A stretch of 32,000 nt of DNA from Microcystis aeruginosa NIES-843 (lineage in GTDB: Bacteria > Cyanobacteriota > Cyanobacteriia > Cyanobacteriales > Microcystaceae). How positions within the stretch are numbered: the first letter of the stretch is position 1; each line of letters starts with the position of its first letter. Below the pieces are notes generated by a model that saw only the letters and a list, made by a program, of their open reading frames with translations, had not been told where the DNA came from and did not search any database. The stretch spans positions 300,001 to 332,000 of the forward strand of contig NC_010296.1 in the NCBI RefSeq assembly GCF_000010625.1. Direction: 5' to 3'. This document shows, piece after piece, positions 19,002 to 30,067 of this stretch. The position numbers and the translations under genes are program-made.

Positions 19002-21350
19002 TTGTCTCCCCTGTTGTTTTGGGAATTATTGGGTTTAGAAGTTAGCTCAGTTAAAGCAGTAGAAAACCTACAATGTCCCGTTATTTCTAGGGAAGAAGTT
19101 GATACTAATGCTCTTAAAAGAGAAATTGCTAATTATTCAGCCACTCTGCGAGTCTATCCTAGCGATCTGGGTACGATTAAACTTTATCTTCAACGGGGAA
19201 TGGCCCGAGAAAAAATCAACGATCAAAACGGTGCGATCGATGATTTCAGTCAATACATTTGGTATAGTAATTATAATGCTCCCGCCTTCAAAGATCGACA
19301 GTTACTAGCTCAAGCCTATTATCAAAGAGGTGTGTTAAAGTTAGCCATGGTGATTGAGGGAGAAAAAACCCCTATAGCCGCCGAGGAAATCCCTGTTATT
19401 GAGGAAAAAACCCCTATAGTTGAGGAAATCCCTGTTATTGAGGAAGAAACACCCTTGATTGAGCGAGAAAGCCGAATCAAGGATCAGCATCAGCTAAAAT
19501 TATTAGAAGCTGCTCGCTCAGATTTTCAGCAAGCCTTTAAGTATAATCCCAATAAAAGCGAAGTTTACTTTAACCTAGCAATTATTGCGTCTTTGCTCAA
19601 TCATCAATCCTTGGCTTTAGATTATTACCAGCGTTTCATTGGTTATGAAACTGAAGATTATCGCGGCTATTATCATCGAGGACAGCTATACTCTCAGTGG
19701 GGAAATTATGCAGAGGCTATCAAAGATTATGATCTGGCTATTTTATACAAACCCGATCTAATTGAAGGCTATTATAATCGGGCTATAGCTTTAGAAAAGA
19801 TAGGGGGAAAACGAGAGGCTTTTAAGGATTATAAAATCGTTTTAAAATGCTCACCCAAACTATTTTTAGCCAAGAATGCTCCTAGCAGTTATCAAAACCG
19901 TGCCAGAGTACAAATTGAAATGGCTGACGAGGAAGTCGAATTAGCCAATTTATCTTCTAATTCCCCCCAAGGGTATCAAACAGCGATCGAGTATTATAAT
20001 GGAGCAATCAAAGATCTAGCACTTGTCATCCGTATTAATCCCAACTACGATAAAATTCCCCATTCTAGAGCATTTCTTAAACGGGGTTATGCTCACCTAA
20101 GACTCAACAATAATCAAGGGGCAATTCAAGATTATAACCAAGCAATTTATCTGCAACCCCAAGACGCAAAAGCCTATGTATATCGGGGGTTAATGCGAGC
20201 GAATAAATATCAAGAATACGCGGGAGCTTTAGAGGATTTTACTGCGGCAGTAGCACGAAATCGTCATGATGCAGCCGCTAACTATCATCGGGGGTTAGTG
20301 CTGTATAAATTGGGGCGTTATCAGGAGGCAGTAGATAATTATAATATTGCCTTAGCCCAAGATGATGGGATTAATACACCTAGTTTTACTTCTCGATCTG
20401 TCTGTAGCGAAAATATCCGAGAATCTGCCGAGAAAAATTATTTTTATGACTCCAGAGAAACTGATTTTCGTCCTAATTATAATGTCTCTTGTCATGCTCT
20501 GGCCCGGGGAGATGCTTATTTTGCTCTGAAAAATTTTGCTGCGGCCGAAAGAGATTATACTACTTATATAGTTGCCTATCCTAACGATCCAGAAGGCTAT
20601 CATAAACGGGCTAATGCGCGTTTTGAAAAAGGGGATAAACAGGGAGCGATCGAGGATTATAATGTATTCCTACAAAAAGTCCGTGATGCGAGAATTTTCT
20701 ATAGTCGTGGTAATAGTAGCGCTGACGTGGGAGATGATCAAGGAGCGATTACAGATTATCTGCAATCTTTGAGCATTAATCCTATCGATGTGACAGCGTA
20801 TAGTAATCGGGGAAATGCACGCACTGATACCGCTACTATTCCCGATAATGTACAAGTAACACCGAGAATATCGGAGAATCCGATCGCCTATAATAATCGT
20901 GGTATTATTCGACGACAAACTGGGGATAAGGAGGGTGCTTTAGAGGATTTAGATAAGGCAGTTAGCTTGAATTCCAATAATCCGATCGCCTATAATAACC
21001 GGGGAGTTATTCGCTTTGATTTGGGAGATAATGCCAGTGCTTTGGAGGATTTAAATATGGCTATTTCTCTCCAGTCTAACTATGCTGAAGCTTACTATAA
21101 TCGAGGTTTAGTTAAGGAAAAAATGGGCGATAAGAAGGCAGCGATCGCTGATTATCAATTAGCAATTACTTATCAGCCAAATTATGGCGAAGCTTATTAT
21201 AATTTGGCGCTTGCCACCTACGACGATAAAAATCCTAGTAGTCGAGTAGCGAGCCTTAACTATTTGCAAAAAGCCGCTAATGCTTTGATAAAAACTGGTA
21301 ATTTAGAACTGTATGAACGCGCGGTAGAATGGATGTTAAAAATGCAGTAA
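19002..21350 (+). CDS. TPR-repeat protein (start uncertain; see the C9-tract finding)
   Basis: 782 aa with many 34-aa TPR units (AEAYYNRGL..GDK.GAI.DY..AI...PN). There is an acidic tandem insert EEIPVIEEKTPIVEEIPVIEEETPLIE at ~19369-19460. The only in-frame start is a TTG. Confidence 0.8.
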   Translation: MSPLLFWELLGLEVSSVKAVENLQCPVISREEVDTNALKREIANYSATLRVYPSDLGTIKLYLQRGMAREKINDQNGAIDDFSQYIWYSNYNAPAFKDRQLLAQAYYQRGVLKLAMVIEGEKTPIAAEEIPVIEEKTPIVEEIPVIEEETPLIERESRIKDQHQLKLLEAARSDFQQAFKYNPNKSEVYFNLAIIASLLNHQSLALDYYQRFIGYETEDYRGYYHRGQLYSQWGNYAEAIKDYDLAILYKPDLIEGYYNRAIALEKIGGKREAFKDYKIVLKCSPKLFLAKNAPSSYQNRARVQIEMADEEVELANLSSNSPQGYQTAIEYYNGAIKDLALVIRINPNYDKIPHSRAFLKRGYAHLRLNNNQGAIQDYNQAIYLQPQDAKAYVYRGLMRANKYQEYAGALEDFTAAVARNRHDAAANYHRGLVLYKLGRYQEAVDNYNIALAQDDGINTPSFTSRSVCSENIRESAEKNYFYDSRETDFRPNYNVSCHALARGDAYFALKNFAAAERDYTTYIVAYPNDPEGYHKRANARFEKGDKQGAIEDYNVFLQKVRDARIFYSRGNSSADVGDDQGAITDYLQSLSINPIDVTAYSNRGNARTDTATIPDNVQVTPRISENPIAYNNRGIIRRQTGDKEGALEDLDKAVSLNSNNPIAYNNRGVIRFDLGDNASALEDLNMAISLQSNYAEAYYNRGLVKEKMGDKKAAIADYQLAITYQPNYGEAYYNLALATYDDKNPSSRVASLNYLQKAANALIKTGNLELYERAVEWMLKMQ

Positions 21351-21765: not shown

Positions 21766-21883
21766 ACCCAAGGAAACCCAACAAAAAGATTCAGACGGAT
21801 TTAGGTGTTGGGTGTTGGGTTGCGCTTTTCCTGGGAATTGAGAGGTTTTCTTTAACATATTTATTCGCTCAAACCAACCTACG
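21766..21883. mobile_element. MITE (GTAGGTTGGGTTGAG-type ends), copy 1, left end truncated
   Basis: ACCCAAGGAAACCCAACAAAAAGATTCAGACGGATTTAGGTGTTGGGTGTTGGGTTGCGCTTTTCCTG...CGCTCAAACCAACCTACG is shared with four other copies. Confidence 0.8.
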
Positions 21884-22606: not shown

Positions 22607-22710
22607 TAATTTTCCTCCGTTAAGATTTTTAAATGGGCTGCTAATTTTTAAGCCACATAACGAATAATTTTAACTTCTGCTCCTTTATTAACAGGAATAG
22701 AATTATCGTC

Positions 22711-22838
22711 CGTTGGGTTGACCCAAGGAAACCCAACAAAAAGATTCAGACTGATTTAGGTGTTGGGTGTTGGGTTGCGCTTTTCCTGAGAATTGAGAGG
22801 TTTTCTTTAACATATTTATTCGCTCAACCCAACCTACG
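22711..22838. mobile_element. MITE copy 2
   Basis: Near-identical to copy 1, including the GGGTTGCGCTTTTCCTG variant. It ends in GCTCAACCCAACCTACG. Confidence 0.8.
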
Positions 22839-22851
22839 AACTCTAGCTAAA

Positions 22852-23025
22852 GTAGGTTGGGTTGAGGCACGAAACCCAACAATACACCCAAGGAAACCCA
22901 ACAATACACCCAAGGAAACCCAACAAAAAGATTCAGACGGATTTAGGTGTTGGGTGTTGGGTTTCGCTTTCCCTGAGAATTGAGAGGTTTTCTTTAACAT
23001 ATTTATTCGCTCAACCCAACCTACG
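22852..23025. mobile_element. MITE copy 3 (full left end, internal 22-bp unit x2.5)
   Basis: It runs GTAGGTTGGGTTGAGGCACG...CTCAACCCAACCTACG, with AAACCCAACAATACACCCAAGG repeated internally. It ends 4 nt from the stop codon of the 1179-aa gene. Confidence 0.8.
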
Positions 23026-23029
23026 AAAC

Positions 23030-26000
23030 TCACCCCCCTAATTGTTGTAAAATCTGCATCACCTTTTCATAAGCAGCCATATTATTCTGTTGGAGGAATA
23101 ATATAGCTGCTTGTTGTAGATCAATTTTTACTTTTTCGGGTTGTCCTAATATGGCATATAAAATACTACGACTGACGTAAGCACCAGCATCATTAGGATT
23201 AATGTCAATAGCTTTGCTGAAGTCAGAGAGGGCTAAATCGTATTTCTGCTGGTTATAGTAAAGAAGCCCCCGATTGTAGTAAGCATTAGCATAATTAGGA
23301 TTAATGTCAATAGCTTTGCTGTAGTCAGAGAGGGCTAATTCGTATTTCTGCAAGTCAGAGTAAAGATTCCCCCGATTGTTGTAAGCACCAGCATCATTAG
23401 GATTAATGTCAATAGCTTTGCTGAAGTCAGAGAGGGCTAAATCGTATTTCTGCTGGTTATAGTAAAGAAGCCCCCGATTGTAGTAAGCCTCAGCAAACTT
23501 AGGATTAATGTCAATAGCTTTGCTGTAGTCAGAGAGGGCTAATTCGTATTTCTGCAAGTTTTTGTAAAGATTCCCCCGATTGTAGTAAGCCTTAGCATAA
23601 TTAGGATTAATTTCAATAGCTTTGCTGTAGTCAGAGAGGGCTAAATCGTATTTCTGCTGGTTATAGTAAAGATTCCCCCGATTGTAGTAAACCTTAGCAT
23701 CATTAGGATTAATGTCAATGGCTTTGCTGTAGTCAGAGAGGGCTAATTCGTACTTCTGCAAGTTTTTGTAAAGATTCCCCCGATTGACGTAAGCCTCAGC
23801 ATAATTAGGATTAATGTCAATGGCTTTGCTGTAGTCAGAGAGGGCTAATTCGTACTTCTGCAAGTTTTTGTAAAGATTCCCCCGATTGACGTAAGCCTCA
23901 GCATAATTAGGATTAATGTCAATGGCTTTGCTGTAGTCAGAGAGGGCTAAATCGTACTTCTGCAAGTCAGAGTAAAGAACCCCCCGATTGACGTAAGCCT
24001 CAGCATAATTAGGATTAATGTCAATGGCTTTGGTGTAGTCAGAGAGGGCTAAATCGTACTTCTGCAAGTCAGAGTAAAGAACCCCCCGATTGTTGTAAGC
24101 CATAGCATAATTAGGATTAATGTCAATAGCTTTGCTGTAGTCAGAGAGGGCTAAATCGTATTTCTGCAAGTCAGAGTAAAGATTCCCCCGATTGTTGTAA
24201 GCCATAGCATAATTAGGATTAATGTCAATGGCTTTGGTGTAGTCAGAGAGGGCTAATTCGTACTTCTGCAAGTTTTTGTAAAGATTCCCCCGATTGACGT
24301 AAGCCTCAGCAAACTTAGGATTAATGTCAATAGCTTTGCTGTAGTCAGAGAGGGCTAATTCGTATTTCTGCAAGTTTTTGTAAAGATTCCCCCGATTGTT
24401 GTAAGCATCAGCAAAATTAGGATTAAGTTCAATGGCTTTGTTCCAGTCAGAGAGGGCTAATTCGTATTTCTGCAAGTCAATGTAAAGATTCCCCCGATTG
24501 GAATACCAAGCAGCACGGGGAGCGAGATCAATTGCCTGAGTAATTGCGGCTAATCCCTCATCATAGCGTTTTAATTTATCTAATACTGCCCATTTCTCGT
24601 TATAGTAATTGGGGTTATTGGGAAGCAGAGAAATCGCCTGATTAATCACCGTTAATGCTTGCTCATAATTTTCTCTGGCTTCTCTTTCTCTACCAGCACT
24701 TGTTGAGAAGTCACCTAAAGAGCGATAAACTCCACTTTGCCGTTGTAAAATACTACTGTGAAAGTTCTTTAAATCTTCCCCTTTAGGTAAGGTATTAATC
24801 GCTTGTTGCAAAGCTTCTATAGCTGGTTGATCTTTATCTAAAGCACCTAACGCTAATCCCTTCCCATACCAAGCTAAATAGACATTCTTGGGGTCATTTT
24901 GCTTAATCGCTTCATCAAAGGCTTTAATTGCTTCCTCATGCCTTGCTAACCGCCATAATTGTCCCCCCCTTTCTATCCAAATATCCGCTGTTGCATTCGT
25001 ATTAGGAACAATAATACTATCAATCGCTTGAATAATTTCTAGTTTTTGTTGCTGGCTAACTTGGGGTTGAGCAGTGGTTAATAATTGCGGTTTTACCTTC
25101 AATCTCTCTTGCAATCCCATAAAAGTGCTAATGGGAATCCCCAAACTAAACCCTAACTGAATTTTCCCCCCCCCTGCTCCTTCTGAACGTCCATGAATCC
25201 CTATTACTCTCCCCTGGGAGTCTAAGACTGCACCGCCACTCATGCCCCCAAATGTGATGCTGGTATAAACTAATTCATACCCTCCGGTTAAAGAAGCAAC
25301 ACTTTGTAATGTTCCACTTTGTTGCGTGCTTAAGTCACTTTGGCGGGTTTGTAGTAATCCCTGTTCTTTACCCCCAATTATACCTCCACTAAACAACCAT
25401 TTCGAGGGATTGTTGCCAATTTTGGGGAAGCCTGCCGCAAAAACAAAATCACCGCTATTTGGGTTATAATTCGCTATTTCCGCAACGGGATAATTGTCCT
25501 GGCTTTCAAACTGAAAAACTGCTAAATCTACCCCTTCCTGCCGGATGATGGTGCTTTTCTCGATGTTTCGAGTTTTGCCGTCCCTGGTGACGACGGTGTA
25601 GGTGAAATTGACACAGGTTTTCTCCTCGGCGATTTTTTCGCAGAGGACGTGAGCGGCGGTTAAAACTGTGTAAATATTCCCTTTTTTAGCGATAATTACG
25701 CCACTTCCATTGGCTTTACTGCTACTATCGATCCGGACGGTGAAACCCTTGGCTTTTGTTTCTAATTCGGCGATATAGCCAGTATAGGCGGTGGTTTCTA
25801 TATCGGGGTTCACCTGCGGTAGGGGCAGGTTATAGGCGCTGAGGATTTCGGGCCGGATGTAGGTTAATAGGGTATTGATGGGAATGCCCCAATTAACCGC
25901 TCTCATCTGTTGGATTTCTGCGTCTGTGGGTTTCGTACCGTCCTCGTAGATGTAGTTAGAGAGAATCGGATGGGCCGATCGCCCGTTAAGGCCGATTAAC

Positions 26001-26569
26001 TCATCCTCGAAAAAGATACCACCGCCACTCATTCCCTGCACGATATCGCCACTATAACCGACGCTGTAGCCCTCCCGGAGGGGTCGATCGCTTGTTTGTT
26101 CAATTTTCCCGTTATCGGTGGTGTACTGCCCCGTTTCTGCGGAATAACCGGTCACGGTGATATCTAGTCCCGCTTCAAGGGGAATGGCGCTAATTTTGGC
26201 GATCGGATAATTCCTAGTATCGCTAAACTCCACTAGGGCCAGATCCTTATCTTTTAAAAGGGAATTCGGCACGATCGAGGCTGTGCGGGTTTGGCCGTCG
26301 TGGGTTTGGATCTGTAGGGTTTTCGCGCCGCGGATAACGTGAGCGTTGGTCAAAACGAGATATATACTGCCTTTTTTCCCGATAATGATTCCCGATCCCC
26401 GATTTATCTCGCTAGTAATCTTAACAGTGACTTGACGGATCGATCGCTCGATCTGCGCGTTTGGGCTGTCTTCCGCCACGATCGCCGGAGCAGAGAAAGG
26501 GGATAGCGCTTTAACCGGTACGACGGGCAGAAGTAGGAGGCTTAGGAGTAGGGGAAAGGGTTTCAACAT
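23030..26569 (-). CDS. Secreted protein with two tandem trypsin-like (S1) serine protease domains fused to ~19 TPR repeats
   Basis: 1179 aa with signal peptide MLKPFPLLLSLLLLPVVPVKA. Triad 1 is TNAH77 / D109LALV / GMS181GG. Triad 2 is TAAH307 / D348LAV / GGMS444GG. TPRs run from residue ~530 to the end. Confidence 0.85.
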   Translation of the reverse strand: MLKPFPLLLSLLLLPVVPVKALSPFSAPAIVAEDSPNAQIERSIRQVTVKITSEINRGSGIIIGKKGSIYLVLTNAHVIRGAKTLQIQTHDGQTRTASIVPNSLLKDKDLALVEFSDTRNYPIAKISAIPLEAGLDITVTGYSAETGQYTTDNGKIEQTSDRPLREGYSVGYSGDIVQGMSGGGIFFEDELIGLNGRSAHPILSNYIYEDGTKPTDAEIQQMRAVNWGIPINTLLTYIRPEILSAYNLPLPQVNPDIETTAYTGYIAELETKAKGFTVRIDSSSKANGSGVIIAKKGNIYTVLTAAHVLCEKIAEEKTCVNFTYTVVTRDGKTRNIEKSTIIRQEGVDLAVFQFESQDNYPVAEIANYNPNSGDFVFAAGFPKIGNNPSKWLFSGGIIGGKEQGLLQTRQSDLSTQQSGTLQSVASLTGGYELVYTSITFGGMSGGAVLDSQGRVIGIHGRSEGAGGGKIQLGFSLGIPISTFMGLQERLKVKPQLLTTAQPQVSQQQKLEIIQAIDSIIVPNTNATADIWIERGGQLWRLARHEEAIKAFDEAIKQNDPKNVYLAWYGKGLALGALDKDQPAIEALQQAINTLPKGEDLKNFHSSILQRQSGVYRSLGDFSTSAGREREARENYEQALTVINQAISLLPNNPNYYNEKWAVLDKLKRYDEGLAAITQAIDLAPRAAWYSNRGNLYIDLQKYELALSDWNKAIELNPNFADAYNNRGNLYKNLQKYELALSDYSKAIDINPKFAEAYVNRGNLYKNLQKYELALSDYTKAIDINPNYAMAYNNRGNLYSDLQKYDLALSDYSKAIDINPNYAMAYNNRGVLYSDLQKYDLALSDYTKAIDINPNYAEAYVNRGVLYSDLQKYDLALSDYSKAIDINPNYAEAYVNRGNLYKNLQKYELALSDYSKAIDINPNYAEAYVNRGNLYKNLQKYELALSDYSKAIDINPNDAKVYYNRGNLYYNQQKYDLALSDYSKAIEINPNYAKAYYNRGNLYKNLQKYELALSDYSKAIDINPKFAEAYYNRGLLYYNQQKYDLALSDFSKAIDINPNDAGAYNNRGNLYSDLQKYELALSDYSKAIDINPNYANAYYNRGLLYYNQQKYDLALSDFSKAIDINPNDAGAYVSRSILYAILGQPEKVKIDLQQAAILFLQQNNMAAYEKVMQILQQLGG
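23186..24511 (-). repeat. 13 head-to-tail 102-bp coding repeats (near-identical TPR units)
   Basis: Exact 102-bp periodicity. For example, 23704-23805 and 23806-23907 read identical. Unit consensus: xAYxNRGxLYxxxQKYxLALSDYxKAIDINPxxA. Confidence 0.9.
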
Positions 26570-26608
26570 GGTTATTATGGGGAAATTCGGGGTAAAACAG
26601 CGAAAATT

Positions 26609-27217
26609 CTAGCGGGTGGGAACGCAATTATTTTGCGGGCCAGCAGATCTCGTACCACAGGGTGCGTCGCGATCGGCGAGTGGTGCTTTGGCGAAAAACT
26701 CCGTCATCGAGATATAGGTTTTATCTCCGGAATTCTGGAGGAGCATATCCGAGCTTTTCCCCTCTAGGATGTCCATGAGTTGTTGCAAGACTAAATCTGG
26801 ATTATCGTGGGGTTTAAGGGTAAAAAGTTGGCTATTACCATCGCAGGGATCGCCGGATCGTGAAACGCTGCAGATGATCGGGTATCCCTTCGCCCGGCCG
26901 GTGGTGAGATAGTTAAAACGCCCTTGATTATAGGCTTCCTGGAATTTTTTCGTGACTTCCTCGCAACGAACCGGGGAACGTTTGGAGAAATATTCCGATT
27001 TCCAGCCGATAATCCGCACATTGCCGCTCCTTTGGGGAATCCAAGCCAGGGTGGCGGGGATTTTTCCTCCCGATGCGCGATCGAACACCTCTTTACAGAA
27101 GAAGGTGACGCCATTCGGGGTGGTCGATTGGCTGAAACCGGGGGCGATACCACCGAGGAGGACAGTGGCGAGGAGGCCGACGCAAGCGAGACGGTGGGAA
27201 ATATGTCTAGAGTTCAT
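26609..27217 (-). CDS. COP23-family (circadian oscillating protein-like) secreted protein
   Basis: 202 aa with a signal peptide and 6 Cys. FFCKEV..GKIPATLAW..RGNVRIIGWKSEYF...RCEEVTKKFQEAY..GRFNYLTTGR.KGYPIIC...GDPC...LFTLKP matches my memory of the COP23 domain pattern. Not verified by a search. Confidence 0.65.
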   Translation of the reverse strand: MNSRHISHRLACVGLLATVLLGGIAPGFSQSTTPNGVTFFCKEVFDRASGGKIPATLAWIPQRSGNVRIIGWKSEYFSKRSPVRCEEVTKKFQEAYNQGRFNYLTTGRAKGYPIICSVSRSGDPCDGNSQLFTLKPHDNPDLVLQQLMDILEGKSSDMLLQNSGDKTYISMTEFFAKAPLADRDAPCGTRSAGPQNNCVPTR

Positions 27218-27276
27218 AGGGATAGTTCCTCAGAAAATAGGGATTAGAATCGTGATTAGGGTCAAAATGGGATTAT

Positions 27277-28377
27277 TTAAGGGTTAGCGGCGGCGTTGAG
27301 GGTGTAGCGACCCGATTCACCCCCTTCGCGAGAGGTGGCCACTAGGATATAAACTCCATCGGCAGGTAATTCGGTTACGAGTCGAGCGTTAAAATCCCCG
27401 GGGGCGCGATCGACGCGCTGGTTACTACGGGCGACCTGTGGGTATTTTGTCCCCTCGGAAGATTGGAGAACGCGATAGAGGACAAGATAGGGAGCGATCT
27501 CGTTGCTGTTCATATCCAGAACGATTTTCTGTCCGGCACGACCCTCGAACCCGTAATATTGCTCGTTTTGGTCTTTGGTCAAGTTGCCTTGAACGGTCTG
27601 ACCGTTAAGAGGGAGGGCGAGTAACTGTATCCGATCGTCCTGTCCTAATGTTGAGACGGTGGAGACATCGCCTGTTTTAACTGCGGTGAGGAAAGCTTGC
27701 AGGCGATCGAGGGAAACGGCGAAATTAATCCCGCTCTGGGTAAGGCCGATCGGGTTTCCCGCACCGTCGTAAACGTAACTCCCGATATCGCCTGCGACGT
27801 TAACCCCCACCACTTCCCCCCGTGAATTCAAAAGCGGCCCGCCGGAATTGCCTTTGTTGATATTAGCGTTGTGTTGTACGATGCCTTTTTCGGGGTCGAG
27901 ACGGCTGATAATGCCCTGGGTGAGGGTGTTTTGATAGTCCTCGTTTAAGGGTGTGCCGATGGCGAAAACGCTTTCGCCGACTTTGGCGGAGTTCGGACGG
28001 GCGAGGGGAAGATAGGGCAGGTTTTGGCGGTTATAAATCCGCAGGACGGCTAAATCCACGCCATTTTTAGCGAAGCCGATCACGTCTGCCGAGGCCTGCT
28101 GTCCGTTGGAAAATTTCACCGTCACCACCCGGGGGCCGTCCGCAACAACGTGGGCGTTGGTAATGATGATACCGTCGGGACTGACCAGAAAGCCGCTACC
28201 GTGGCCGCTGCCATTTTTGACGGTGACGACGGCGGGGCTGGCTTTCTGATAGACTCTAGAAGCGGTCTGCTCCTGGGCGAGGATGGGTGGAATGTTTTCC
28301 ATCAGGAAGCCTCCGGGTTGAACGAGTAGGCCAGTGGTGGCCAGTAGCACCGATAGGGTGAAAGTAATTGGTTTCAT
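27277..28377 (-). CDS. Secreted HtrA-like S1 serine protease with a PPC-like C-terminal beta domain in place of PDZ
   Basis: 366 aa with signal peptide MKPITFTLSVLLATTGLLV. The triad is TNAHV / VDLAVL / GNSGGPL. The C-terminal YYGFEGRAGQKIVLDM....GVYILVATS..GESGRYTLNA resembles pre-peptidase C-terminal domains. Confidence 0.8.
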   Translation of the reverse strand: MKPITFTLSVLLATTGLLVQPGGFLMENIPPILAQEQTASRVYQKASPAVVTVKNGSGHGSGFLVSPDGIIITNAHVVADGPRVVTVKFSNGQQASADVIGFAKNGVDLAVLRIYNRQNLPYLPLARPNSAKVGESVFAIGTPLNEDYQNTLTQGIISRLDPEKGIVQHNANINKGNSGGPLLNSRGEVVGVNVAGDIGSYVYDGAGNPIGLTQSGINFAVSLDRLQAFLTAVKTGDVSTVSTLGQDDRIQLLALPLNGQTVQGNLTKDQNEQYYGFEGRAGQKIVLDMNSNEIAPYLVLYRVLQSSEGTKYPQVARSNQRVDRAPGDFNARLVTELPADGVYILVATSREGGESGRYTLNAAANP

Positions 28378-28493
28378 CGGGTTGGCTCCTCTTTAGTCGG
28401 GGGATACTTGCAAGGATGTTATCGTTGGTTTTTTTCCAATTATGCGATTAAGTTTTAAGTCTTCAGGTTGCTTTTTTCACAAAAGTTTAGAGG

Positions 28494-28513
28494 GGGAGAG
28501 CGATCGCTCTCCC
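28494..28513 (-). terminator. Perfect 20-bp palindrome centred on a HIP1 site, 7 nt after the TPR gene stop (possible terminator)
   Basis: GGGAGAGCGATCGCTCTCCC. On the minus strand it is followed, after CCTCTAAAC, by a TTTT run. Confidence 0.4.
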
Positions 28514-28520
28514 TTGCAAC

Positions 28521-29015
28521 TTACGCACCTATCTGCCGTAGTGCTTCTATGGCGCTGTTGTACATTTCTGTGTTTCCCTGCTGGCGAAATAATTCGGCGG
28601 CCGTTGTTAGATCGGCGATCGCATTTTGTCTCTGGTTAAATGCGAGATGGACGTATCCGCGGAAATGGTAAGCGTAGGCAGCGCGGGGGTTTAGTCGGAT
28701 CGCGGTGTTCAGGTCTTGAAACGCCGGCCGCCATTGTTCGCGAATCGTGTAAATCATGCCCCGACCGAGGTAAGCTTCGGTATAGTCTGGATCGAGTTCG
28801 ATCGCTCTGGTGAATTGAGCGAGGGCGAGATCATATTTTTCCTGTTGGATGTAGTTAATTCCCCGGTTAAAGTGGGCGATCGCTTCTTTGTAGTTCGCTT
28901 GAGTGATCAGGGTTTCGGCTGGTTGTCGGCTTTCTAGGGCCATAACGGGGCGAACAGTGGCGAGGGTGGAGAGGCCGATTAGACTGACGGTGGTGAGAAG
29001 GGCAAAGGATTTCAT
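28521..29015 (-). CDS. Small secreted TPR protein
   Basis: 164 aa with signal peptide MKSFALLTTVSLIGLSTLATVRPVMA. It has three or four TPRs and the C-terminal cap AAELFRQQGNTEMYNSAIEALRQIGA. Confidence 0.8.
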   Translation of the reverse strand: MKSFALLTTVSLIGLSTLATVRPVMALESRQPAETLITQANYKEAIAHFNRGINYIQQEKYDLALAQFTRAIELDPDYTEAYLGRGMIYTIREQWRPAFQDLNTAIRLNPRAAYAYHFRGYVHLAFNQRQNAIADLTTAAELFRQQGNTEMYNSAIEALRQIGA

Positions 29016-29796: not shown

Positions 29797-29925
29797 CTAG
29801 ACCGCGCCTAATTGCCGTAGGAATTGCAGGGCTTTTTCGCGTGCTGGCGCGTTCCCTTGCTGGCGGAACAGTTCGGCGGCTTGTCGGAAATCCTCGATCG
29901 CTTTTTCCTTGTCTAGCCGATAGAC
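29797..29925 (-). pseudogene. C-terminal remnant of a TPR gene, truncated by a MITE
   Basis: YVYRLDKEKAIEDFRQAAELFRQQGNAPAREKALQFLRQLGAV* parallels the C-terminus of the 164-aa TPR protein. Upstream coding sequence is replaced by MITE copy 4. Confidence 0.65.
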
Positions 29926-30067
29926 GTAAGGAAACCCAACAATAGACCCAAGGAAACCCAACAATAGACCCAAGGAAACCCAACAATACACCCAAGGAAA
30001 CCCAACAAAAAGATTCAGACGGACTTAGGTGTTGGTTGTTGGGTTTCGTTCCGATGACCCAACCTAG
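29923..30067. mobile_element. MITE copy 4 (22-bp unit x3.5, internal deletion in the right half)
   Basis: GACGTAAGGAAACCCAACAATAGACCCAAGG... then ...TTAGGTGTTGGTTGTTGGGTTTCG, jumping to ACCCAACCTAGG. Confidence 0.7.

Follow-up and report, generated by a model that had tools for sequence, protein, structure and literature searches.

The window analysed here is a stretch of 32,000 nucleotides of the Microcystis aeruginosa NIES-843 genome (NC_010296.1, positions 300,001 to 332,000), and the system under study is a block of four minus-strand genes at 23030-29015 that combines a member of the COP23 family with trypsin-fold (S1) serine proteases and tetratricopeptide repeats (TPRs). An earlier note on this DNA, made from the sequence alone, had proposed the block as an exported proteolytic system, and the open reading frame (ORF) list places all four genes on the strand and at the coordinates it gave. 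In 5' to 3' order on the minus strand the genes are TPR164, S1-PPC, COP23, and S1-S1-TPR; their features are as follows.

28521-29015, minus strand: TPR164, a small TPR protein of 164 amino acids (TPR_1, E = 1.6e-17; TPR_END_plus, E = 2e-9).
27277-28377, minus strand: S1-PPC, a protease of 366 amino acids (Trypsin_2, E = 3e-33).
27280-27630, minus strand: predicted PPC beta domain of the 366-residue protease (residues ~250-366), in the usual place of the HtrA PDZ domain.
26609-27217, minus strand: COP23, 202 amino acids (PF14218, E = 7e-35, 120.2 bits for a cut-off of 27, with 137 of 138 model positions aligned).
23030-26569, minus strand: S1-S1-TPR, 1179 amino acids, with two Trypsin_2 stretches, TPR families, and a predicted signal peptide at residues 1-21.
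25820-26422, minus strand: protease domain S1a of the 1179-residue protein (residues ~50-250; H77/D109/S181).
25124-25747, minus strand: protease domain S1b of the same protein (residues ~275-482; H307/D348/S444).
23087-24985, minus strand: TPR array of the same protein (residues ~529-1161; TPR_1, E = 1.3e-151, 13 stretches).
23177-24500, minus strand: 13 tandem 102-bp units, 91% identical, within the array (Tandem Repeats Finder score 1976; direct-repeat family D1; per-repeat listing).

The last three genes are tightly packed, with gaps of 59 and 39 nt, each one less than the 60 and 40 bp counted earlier, and a GAGG-type ribosome-binding site precedes each of them. TPR164 is separated from S1-PPC by 143 nt, within which lies a hairpin:

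28494-28513, minus strand: perfect palindrome GGGAGAGCGATCGCTCTCCC with an 8-bp stem and a HIP1 core, 8 nt past the TPR164 stop codon.

The minus-strand segment 28440-28530 has a predicted folding energy of -25.6 kcal/mol (z = -3.3). The hairpin is not called by a consensus terminator scan; its role may be that of a terminator or of an RNA-stability element dividing TPR164 from the three-gene core. An NtcA-type GTA-N8-TAC site was looked for and is not found near the module. All four proteins have signal-peptide-like starts, as the earlier note had read them, with a basic n-region, a hydrophobic core, and VMA, ILA, GFS, and VKA cleavage sites; these signals were judged by eye.

COP23 consists of three parts: a predicted signal peptide (residues 1-29, ...GFS|QS), the COP23 domain (residues 38-175), and a disordered tail (residues 183-202). 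The PF14218 match bears out the family assignment. The description of COP23 as a six-cysteine protein is right in number, but in an alignment of 18 homologues only C41, C85, C116, and C125 are invariant across the family; the two cysteines of the C-terminal tail are specific to one subclade. The AlphaFold2 model has a predicted local distance difference test score (pLDDT) of 72 overall and ~90 in the core; one loop (residues ~152-163, MLLQNSG) is conserved in sequence, flexible, and modelled with low confidence. A Foldseek search with this model gives no fold relative in the PDB (best E = 0.22), a profile search of PDB sequences gives no sequence relative (best E = 0.39), and no membrane-, glycan-, or peptidoglycan-binding fold or motif is detected in COP23 by Pfam, Foldseek, or the PDB-sequence profile. 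The ORF is 100% identical in strain NIES-4325 and in a Microcystis metagenome-assembled genome (MAG). The family as a whole numbers 1612 representatives at 50% identity, with 73 at E ≤ 1e-30 against a profile of close homologues; signal or lipoprotein-type N-termini are present in most of the 149 family representatives inspected by eye.

The tail of COP23 (residues 183-202, nt 26612-26671) carries a Cys-bracketed T-R-S-A-G-P-Q motif. In the general form [RK]-S-[AG]-G-[PT]-Q this motif is kept in one COP23 subclade, often within a Cys-Cys loop, and it is duplicated in the homologues P0020 and P0022. It could be a candidate docking or cleavage site.

The first protease of the core, S1-PPC, has the triad H76, D108, S178 and is HtrA-like, as had been claimed: it matches degP_htrA_DO (TIGR02037) with E = 4e-37 over the protease part only, and HhoA_HhoB_HtrA with E = 2e-33. 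With the HtrA/DegP/DegQ/HhoA enzymes (MEROPS S1C) it shares the S1C domain, predicted export, and an intact triad; it differs from them in scoring 128 bits against a TIGR02037 equivalog cut-off of 416 and in having a predicted PPC domain instead of a PDZ domain, of which a Pfam search finds none. The window protein alone matches PF04151 (PPC) below the cut-off over residues ~250-366 (E = 0.024, 15.9 bits against 25.9). Because 42 of 51 orthologues match this family at E ≤ 0.01 (best 3e-8), and because the equivalent region of a modelled homologue, the natural fusion protein P0099, is all-beta with pLDDT ~90, the prediction that PPC stands where HtrA proteins have PDZ holds. Foldseek with the protease domain of this fusion returns HtrA1, HtrA2, Synechocystis HhoA, and DegS at E~1e-17, and the model of P0099 gives HtrA matches only.

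The largest protein joins two further protease domains to a TPR array, in agreement with the architecture first described (two Trypsin_2 stretches and at least 13 TPRs). The repeats total ~18 instead of the ~19 originally estimated, comprising 13 near-identical 34-residue units, one capping unit, and ~4 degenerate upstream units; the register is an exact 34-residue spacing from residue 686 to 1161. S1a and S1b are two sister types that elsewhere occur as separate adjacent genes, S1a and S1b(-TPR), and are fused in the 1179-residue protein; against PDB sequences both are only remotely HtrA-like (E~1e-7). S1a has an Asp six residues before the catalytic Ser, at an Asp189-like position. The His/Asp/Ser triads that the earlier note had read in all three protease domains of the block are present in the motifs it quoted and show no change across 22-24 orthologues drawn from two cyanobacterial orders; by this measure the three domains are active-looking and not pseudo-proteases.

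Other Microcystis strains and Pannus (L002-L005, L009) have near-identical protease domains joined to a different TPR-array type and a different C-terminal cap; the large proteins measure 1179, 1271, or 1305 amino acids, and several Microcystis contigs stop inside the array. From these comparisons the putative docking part of the large protein appears exchangeable. S1b itself occurs in Microcystis as two allelic lineages, ELVYTS...GGAVLDSQGRV and DMVYTS...GGPVLNAAGQV, when the window is compared with the same loci; the second lineage is common to Pannus, and the pattern suggests recombination or transfer.

Conservation of gene order was examined with a sequence pattern specific to the COP23 subfamily of the window, taking one genome per species, which yields 28 loci. 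The order S1-PPC, COP23, S1-S1-TPR on one strand is found in the Chroococcales (Microcystis, Pannus, and a Microcystaceae MAG) and in the Nostocales (Scytonema, Dolichospermum, Stigonema, Cylindrospermum, Nostoc, Trichormus, Sphaerospermopsis, Tolypothrix, Rivularia, and Calothrix, the last with two copies). The module, in part in variant form, also occurs in Crocosphaera watsonii (S1-PPC, three COP23 genes, a small TPR gene, S1-S1), on a conjugative plasmid of Stanieria PCC 7437 of the Pleurocapsales (S1C, COP23, and a 1067-residue serine protease), and on an Acaryochloris plasmid (TPR-protease, COP23, TPR); the names in the public annotation are generic. One contig labelled 'MAG: Rhizobium sp.' (L006, JAPZUE010000031.1) carries a module 97% identical to that of Microcystis, almost certainly through binning contamination.

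The four-gene unit first proposed does not survive this comparison intact. TPR164 has ~3 TPRs and an 'end-of-group' cap behind a signal-peptide-like sequence (residues 1-26, ...VMA|LE), and only Microcystis and Pannus have a small TPR gene upstream of the core; in Crocosphaera, some Nostocales, and the Acaryochloris plasmid such genes lie at other positions. Because of this restricted distribution, and with the hairpin after the TPR164 stop codon possibly dividing the block, the fixed unit as predicted from gene order is the three-gene core and, more deeply, the COP23-S1 pair. TPR164 as a fixed fourth member is rejected; on its distribution it is a putative, loosely associated extra component.

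The pairing of COP23 with S1 proteases extends well beyond this subfamily. A scan of metagenomes for a distant COP23 subfamily gave 64 loci; the window COP23 matches ORFs of this subfamily only at 1e-15 to 1e-27, whereas matches inside the subfamily reach 1e-40 to 1e-50. In these pattern-selected loci, to which the statistics apply, 30 of the 54 distinct COP23 genes with enough downstream sequence are followed on their own strand by an S1 gene that starts no more than 500 bp away, often at gaps of -6 to 30 nt, and lies immediately upstream in 3 of 52. Over all fetched loci 104 S1 ORFs fall within 5 kb of COP23 and 1 in the 198 kb beyond (counts not de-duplicated); since the background is thus one S1 ORF per 198 kb, the chance expectation of adjacency is ~0.001. 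The enrichment of S1 peptidases beside COP23 that the earlier note had named as a check is therefore found, and in a distant subfamily. GxSGG is retained in 43 of 48 S1 neighbours of the distant-subfamily genes, and these neighbours also have hydrophobic N-termini.

In several lineages the association is fixed within a single polypeptide. Signal-S1-PPC-COP23 fusions form three clusters at least 50% divergent from one another, and other fusions include 2xCOP23-TPR-S1, COP23-CHAT (P0172; CHAT is a caspase-like protease), fasciclin-COP23, whose gene is itself followed by an S1 gene, and COP23-S1a (loci L085 and L090). Cyanothece, Rippkaea, and UCYN-A proteins are absent from the results of a homologue search seeded with a paralogue from Crocosphaera. 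Because COP23 is fused to two unrelated protease folds, we infer that it works physically with proteases; the same observation argues against COP23 as a fold-specific active-site blocker. Large CHAT(-TPR) protease genes also adjoin COP23-S1 pairs in two metagenome loci (L038 220-2880 and L055 1094-4912).

Taken together, the profile match, the S1 enrichment, the intact triads, and the independent fusions make it very probable that the block encodes a functionally coupled, exported module of COP23 and proteases, in which COP23 would be a protease partner, much as the earlier note had supposed. Its remark that the block contains no transporter, ATPase, or regulator also extends to the flanking genes, where none is found.

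COP23 has been described since 1996. A recent preprint cites rhythmic synthesis and rhythmic light- and Ca2+-dependent degradation of the COP23 of strain RF-1 (Synechococcus/Cyanothece) (bioRxiv 10.64898/2026.04.23.720389), and the protein is placed in the cell membrane by Chen et al. (1996), as cited in PMC11131595. In UCYN-A, COP23 is the most strongly cycling transcript (PMC6315102), and nitrogen status and the diel cycle exert strong control over COP23 homologues of diazotrophs (PMC6315102; bioRxiv 10.64898/2026.04.23.720389). Anabaena Alr2313 is named as a COP23 homologue (bioRxiv 10.64898/2026.04.23.720389); it is detected in the exoproteome (PMC4390845) and its gene shows the strongest reduction in a sigG mutant (PMC4390870). 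The RF-1 and Alr2313 reports support an extracytoplasmic location of COP23. The protein has been stated to occur only in N2-fixers (PMC6315102); Microcystis, a non-diazotroph, has a COP23 gene, which is at odds with this statement, and COP23-family genes are thus not confined to nitrogen fixers. With the COP23 proteins of RF-1, UCYN-A, diatom spheroid bodies, and Anabaena (Alr2313), the Microcystis protein shares PF14218, small size, and predicted export or membrane association; it differs from RF-1 COP23 in coming from a non-diazotroph and is likened to it by Pfam family, not by orthology. In the literature searched on COP23 and PF14218 no paper ties COP23 to proteases and, in line with the earlier note, none describes the module; the cassette and the COP23-protease link appear undescribed so far, the enzyme families themselves (S1C, trypsin fold, PPC, TPR) being known.

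How COP23 and the proteases might act on one another can be set out as a working model. On the outer side of the plasma membrane, COP23 would bind the co-encoded proteases and be their cognate partner; the HtrA-type enzyme, S1a, and S1b would act together; the TPR array and the PPC domain would dock COP23 tails or loops, or further envelope substrates; and cleavage of COP23 by the proteases would set its abundance post-translationally. That COP23 is both the cognate partner of the proteases and their regulated substrate is the reading we tentatively prefer, at somewhat under an even chance, and the reported rhythmic degradation of RF-1 COP23 fits a protease substrate. Several observations weigh against it. 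Nostocales orthologues lack the tail motif [RK]-S-[AG]-G-[PT]-Q; consensus promoter and terminator scans of the block give no operon-defining signal above chance; ~44% of the distant-subfamily COP23 genes have no adjoining S1 gene; and the AlphaFold2 model of the natural S1-PPC-COP23 fusion P0099, in which the individual domains are confident, has a predicted template-modelling score (pTM) of 0.54. Tight gene coupling and cis fusions are, moreover, more typical of stoichiometric partners, such as an inhibitor, an adaptor, or a chaperone, than of a bulk substrate. A bolder form of the proposal, in which COP23 would be the founder of a cyanobacterial new-fold class of partners for exported S1/CHAT proteases and the adjoining proteases would drive its daily light/Ca2+-dependent degradation, is possible but on the doubtful side; if true, the cassette would serve, at the post-translational level, as a timer or remodeller of the envelope in bloom-forming Microcystis as well as in diazotrophs, nitroplasts, and diazoplasts.

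Systems such as AprA-AprI, serralysin-Inh, and ecotin pair a secreted protease with a periplasmic inhibitor, and COP23 resembles their inhibitors in its small size, its export, its disulfides, and the presence of an exported protease in the same gene cluster. COP23 might thus be a dedicated periplasmic inhibitor or latency factor of the AprI/Inh, ecotin, or trans-acting prodomain type, its daily degradation being the step that activates the protease. Its gene lies immediately 5' of the protease gene, with gaps often overlapping or very short, and in COP23-S1, 2xCOP23-TPR-S1, and COP23-CHAT the COP23 domain is N-terminal to the protease, like a prodomain; the Cys-bracketed tail loop, with Arg or Lys followed by Ser, presumably resembles canonical inhibitor reactive-site loops, and S1a has the Asp189-like residue mentioned above. 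This role is nonetheless unlikely, given that COP23 is fused both to trypsin-fold and caspase-like CHAT proteases, which are unrelated, and to fasciclin, that two or three tandem COP23 genes may accompany one protease set, that only one subclade has the tail loop, and that the PDB searches reported above reveal no fold or sequence likeness to any solved inhibitor. Relative to AprI, Inh, and ecotin in particular, COP23 is encoded upstream and not downstream, occurs in tandem copies and in the fusions just named, and is without similarity in fold or sequence. A comparably small probability attaches to COP23 as a membrane- or envelope-anchoring adaptor that places the proteases and presents other substrates to them without being their main target. 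NlpI, the partner of Prc in E. coli, would be its functional counterpart. The cassette as a whole also recalls NlpI-Prc and BepA of E. coli, where an exported protease is paired with a TPR module for docking partners or substrates at the envelope, BepA having its TPR in cis, as does the 1179-residue protein; the E. coli enzymes are S41 and M48 proteases and not S1, no COP23-like component is part of these systems, and Microcystis has three protease domains and a TPR array that is far longer and built of near-identical units. The fusion of the COP23 domain to different effectors (S1, CHAT, fasciclin), lipoprotein-type signals in some family members, the cell-membrane location described for RF-1 COP23 in the source cited above, and paralogous COP23-protease pairs inside one locus (L041, L067, L090) agree with the adaptor role. 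Against it, COP23 has none of the binding folds or motifs searched for, the Anabaena homologue is recovered from the medium, and an adaptor role alone leaves the rhythmic degradation of COP23 unexplained.

Cytoplasmic conflict systems of multicellular bacteria that combine trypsin or CHAT proteases with TPRs have reportedly been described by Kaur, Burroughs, Iyer and Aravind in 2020, and the trypsin-like and CHAT proteases with TPR arrays in cyanobacteria, including the CHAT-TPR genes near loci L038 and L055, resemble them; the Microcystis module differs in having signal peptides on all components and in lacking an NTPase or effector-associated domain. A conflict system acting between cells, with polymorphic secreted protease toxins, swappable TPR arrays, and COP23 as the periplasmic immunity protein, would accommodate the copies on conjugative plasmids, the toxin-antitoxin genes, mobile elements, and bracketing repeats around the block (see below), and the different array types on near-identical protease domains together with the two S1b lineages. 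Such a system is nevertheless very improbable: it lacks any domain or gene for delivery or secretion, its gene order is the reverse of the usual toxin-immunity order, PADLOC gives generic trypsin and TPR domain matches only, the module is conserved across orders with slow divergence, and COP23 homologues are strongly nitrogen- and diel-regulated in diazotrophs. A known anti-phage defence system is likewise rejected, as the PADLOC matches are at domain level only (RT-Protease_XI, LmuA, TPR) and COP23 and TPR164 have none. The chance that the genes act independently and are adjacent simply by inherited synteny is slimmer still; most of the 28 orthologue loci come from one COP23 subfamily and may reflect one ancestral arrangement, but the pairing recurs in the distant subfamily at ~400 times the background rate, recurs on plasmids, and is locked in by fusion in several independent architectures.

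The COP23-protease link is the first concrete, testable lead to COP23 function; the conserved genomic and fusion association turns COP23 from an 'unknown membrane protein' into a set of questions about binding, cleavage, inhibition, and daily turnover. The cassette itself would be a widespread exported protease system of cyanobacteria, including bloom-forming Microcystis.

The flanking genes comprise a PIN toxin-antitoxin pair, an Uma2 endonuclease, a DUF4160/DUF2442 pair, a transposase, and a TPR protein of 782 amino acids. Across 25070-29015 the GC content at third codon positions sets TPR164, S1-PPC, COP23, and the protease-encoding half of the large gene (0.52-0.62) apart from its TPR-encoding half and most neighbouring genes (0.30-0.46); the window as a whole has a GC content of 0.42.

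A palindromic Microcystis repeat lies on either side of the block:

22871-22966, plus strand: palindromic Microcystis repeat of ~96 nt, just 3' of the large gene (direct-repeat family D3).
29931-30048, plus strand: second copy cluster of the ~96-nt repeat, upstream of TPR164 and Uma2, 97% identical to 22871-22966.

The repeat is composed of GGAAACCCAACAATACACCCAAG, repeated, followed by AGGTGTTGGGTGTTGGGTTTCG, with window copies at 21772, 22684-22779, 22871-22966, and 29931-30048; a 13-mer taken from it has 10 matches in the window, against 0.09 expected. Besides the four-gene block with Uma2, it brackets the PIN toxin-antitoxin pair, and in loci L002 and L004, from two further Microcystis strains, it likewise flanks the block from TPR164 to the large gene. 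The repeat may mark a cassette boundary or may simply be a common intergenic repeat.

Further TPR sequences are found nearby. A 64-residue ORF on the minus strand (29797-29991) ends in ...FRQAAELFRQQGNAPAREKALQFLRQLGAV, resembling the caps at the C-termini of TPR164 and the large protein, and looks like a remnant of another TPR gene. The gene for the 782-residue protein, which consists of TPRs only, lies at 19002-21350 on the plus strand, convergent to the large gene and with the PIN toxin-antitoxin pair in between. Its 785-residue counterpart in Microcystis sp. T1-4 directly follows the large gene (L004 8695-11052), and convergent TPR genes of ~280 amino acids follow the module in three Nostocales loci.

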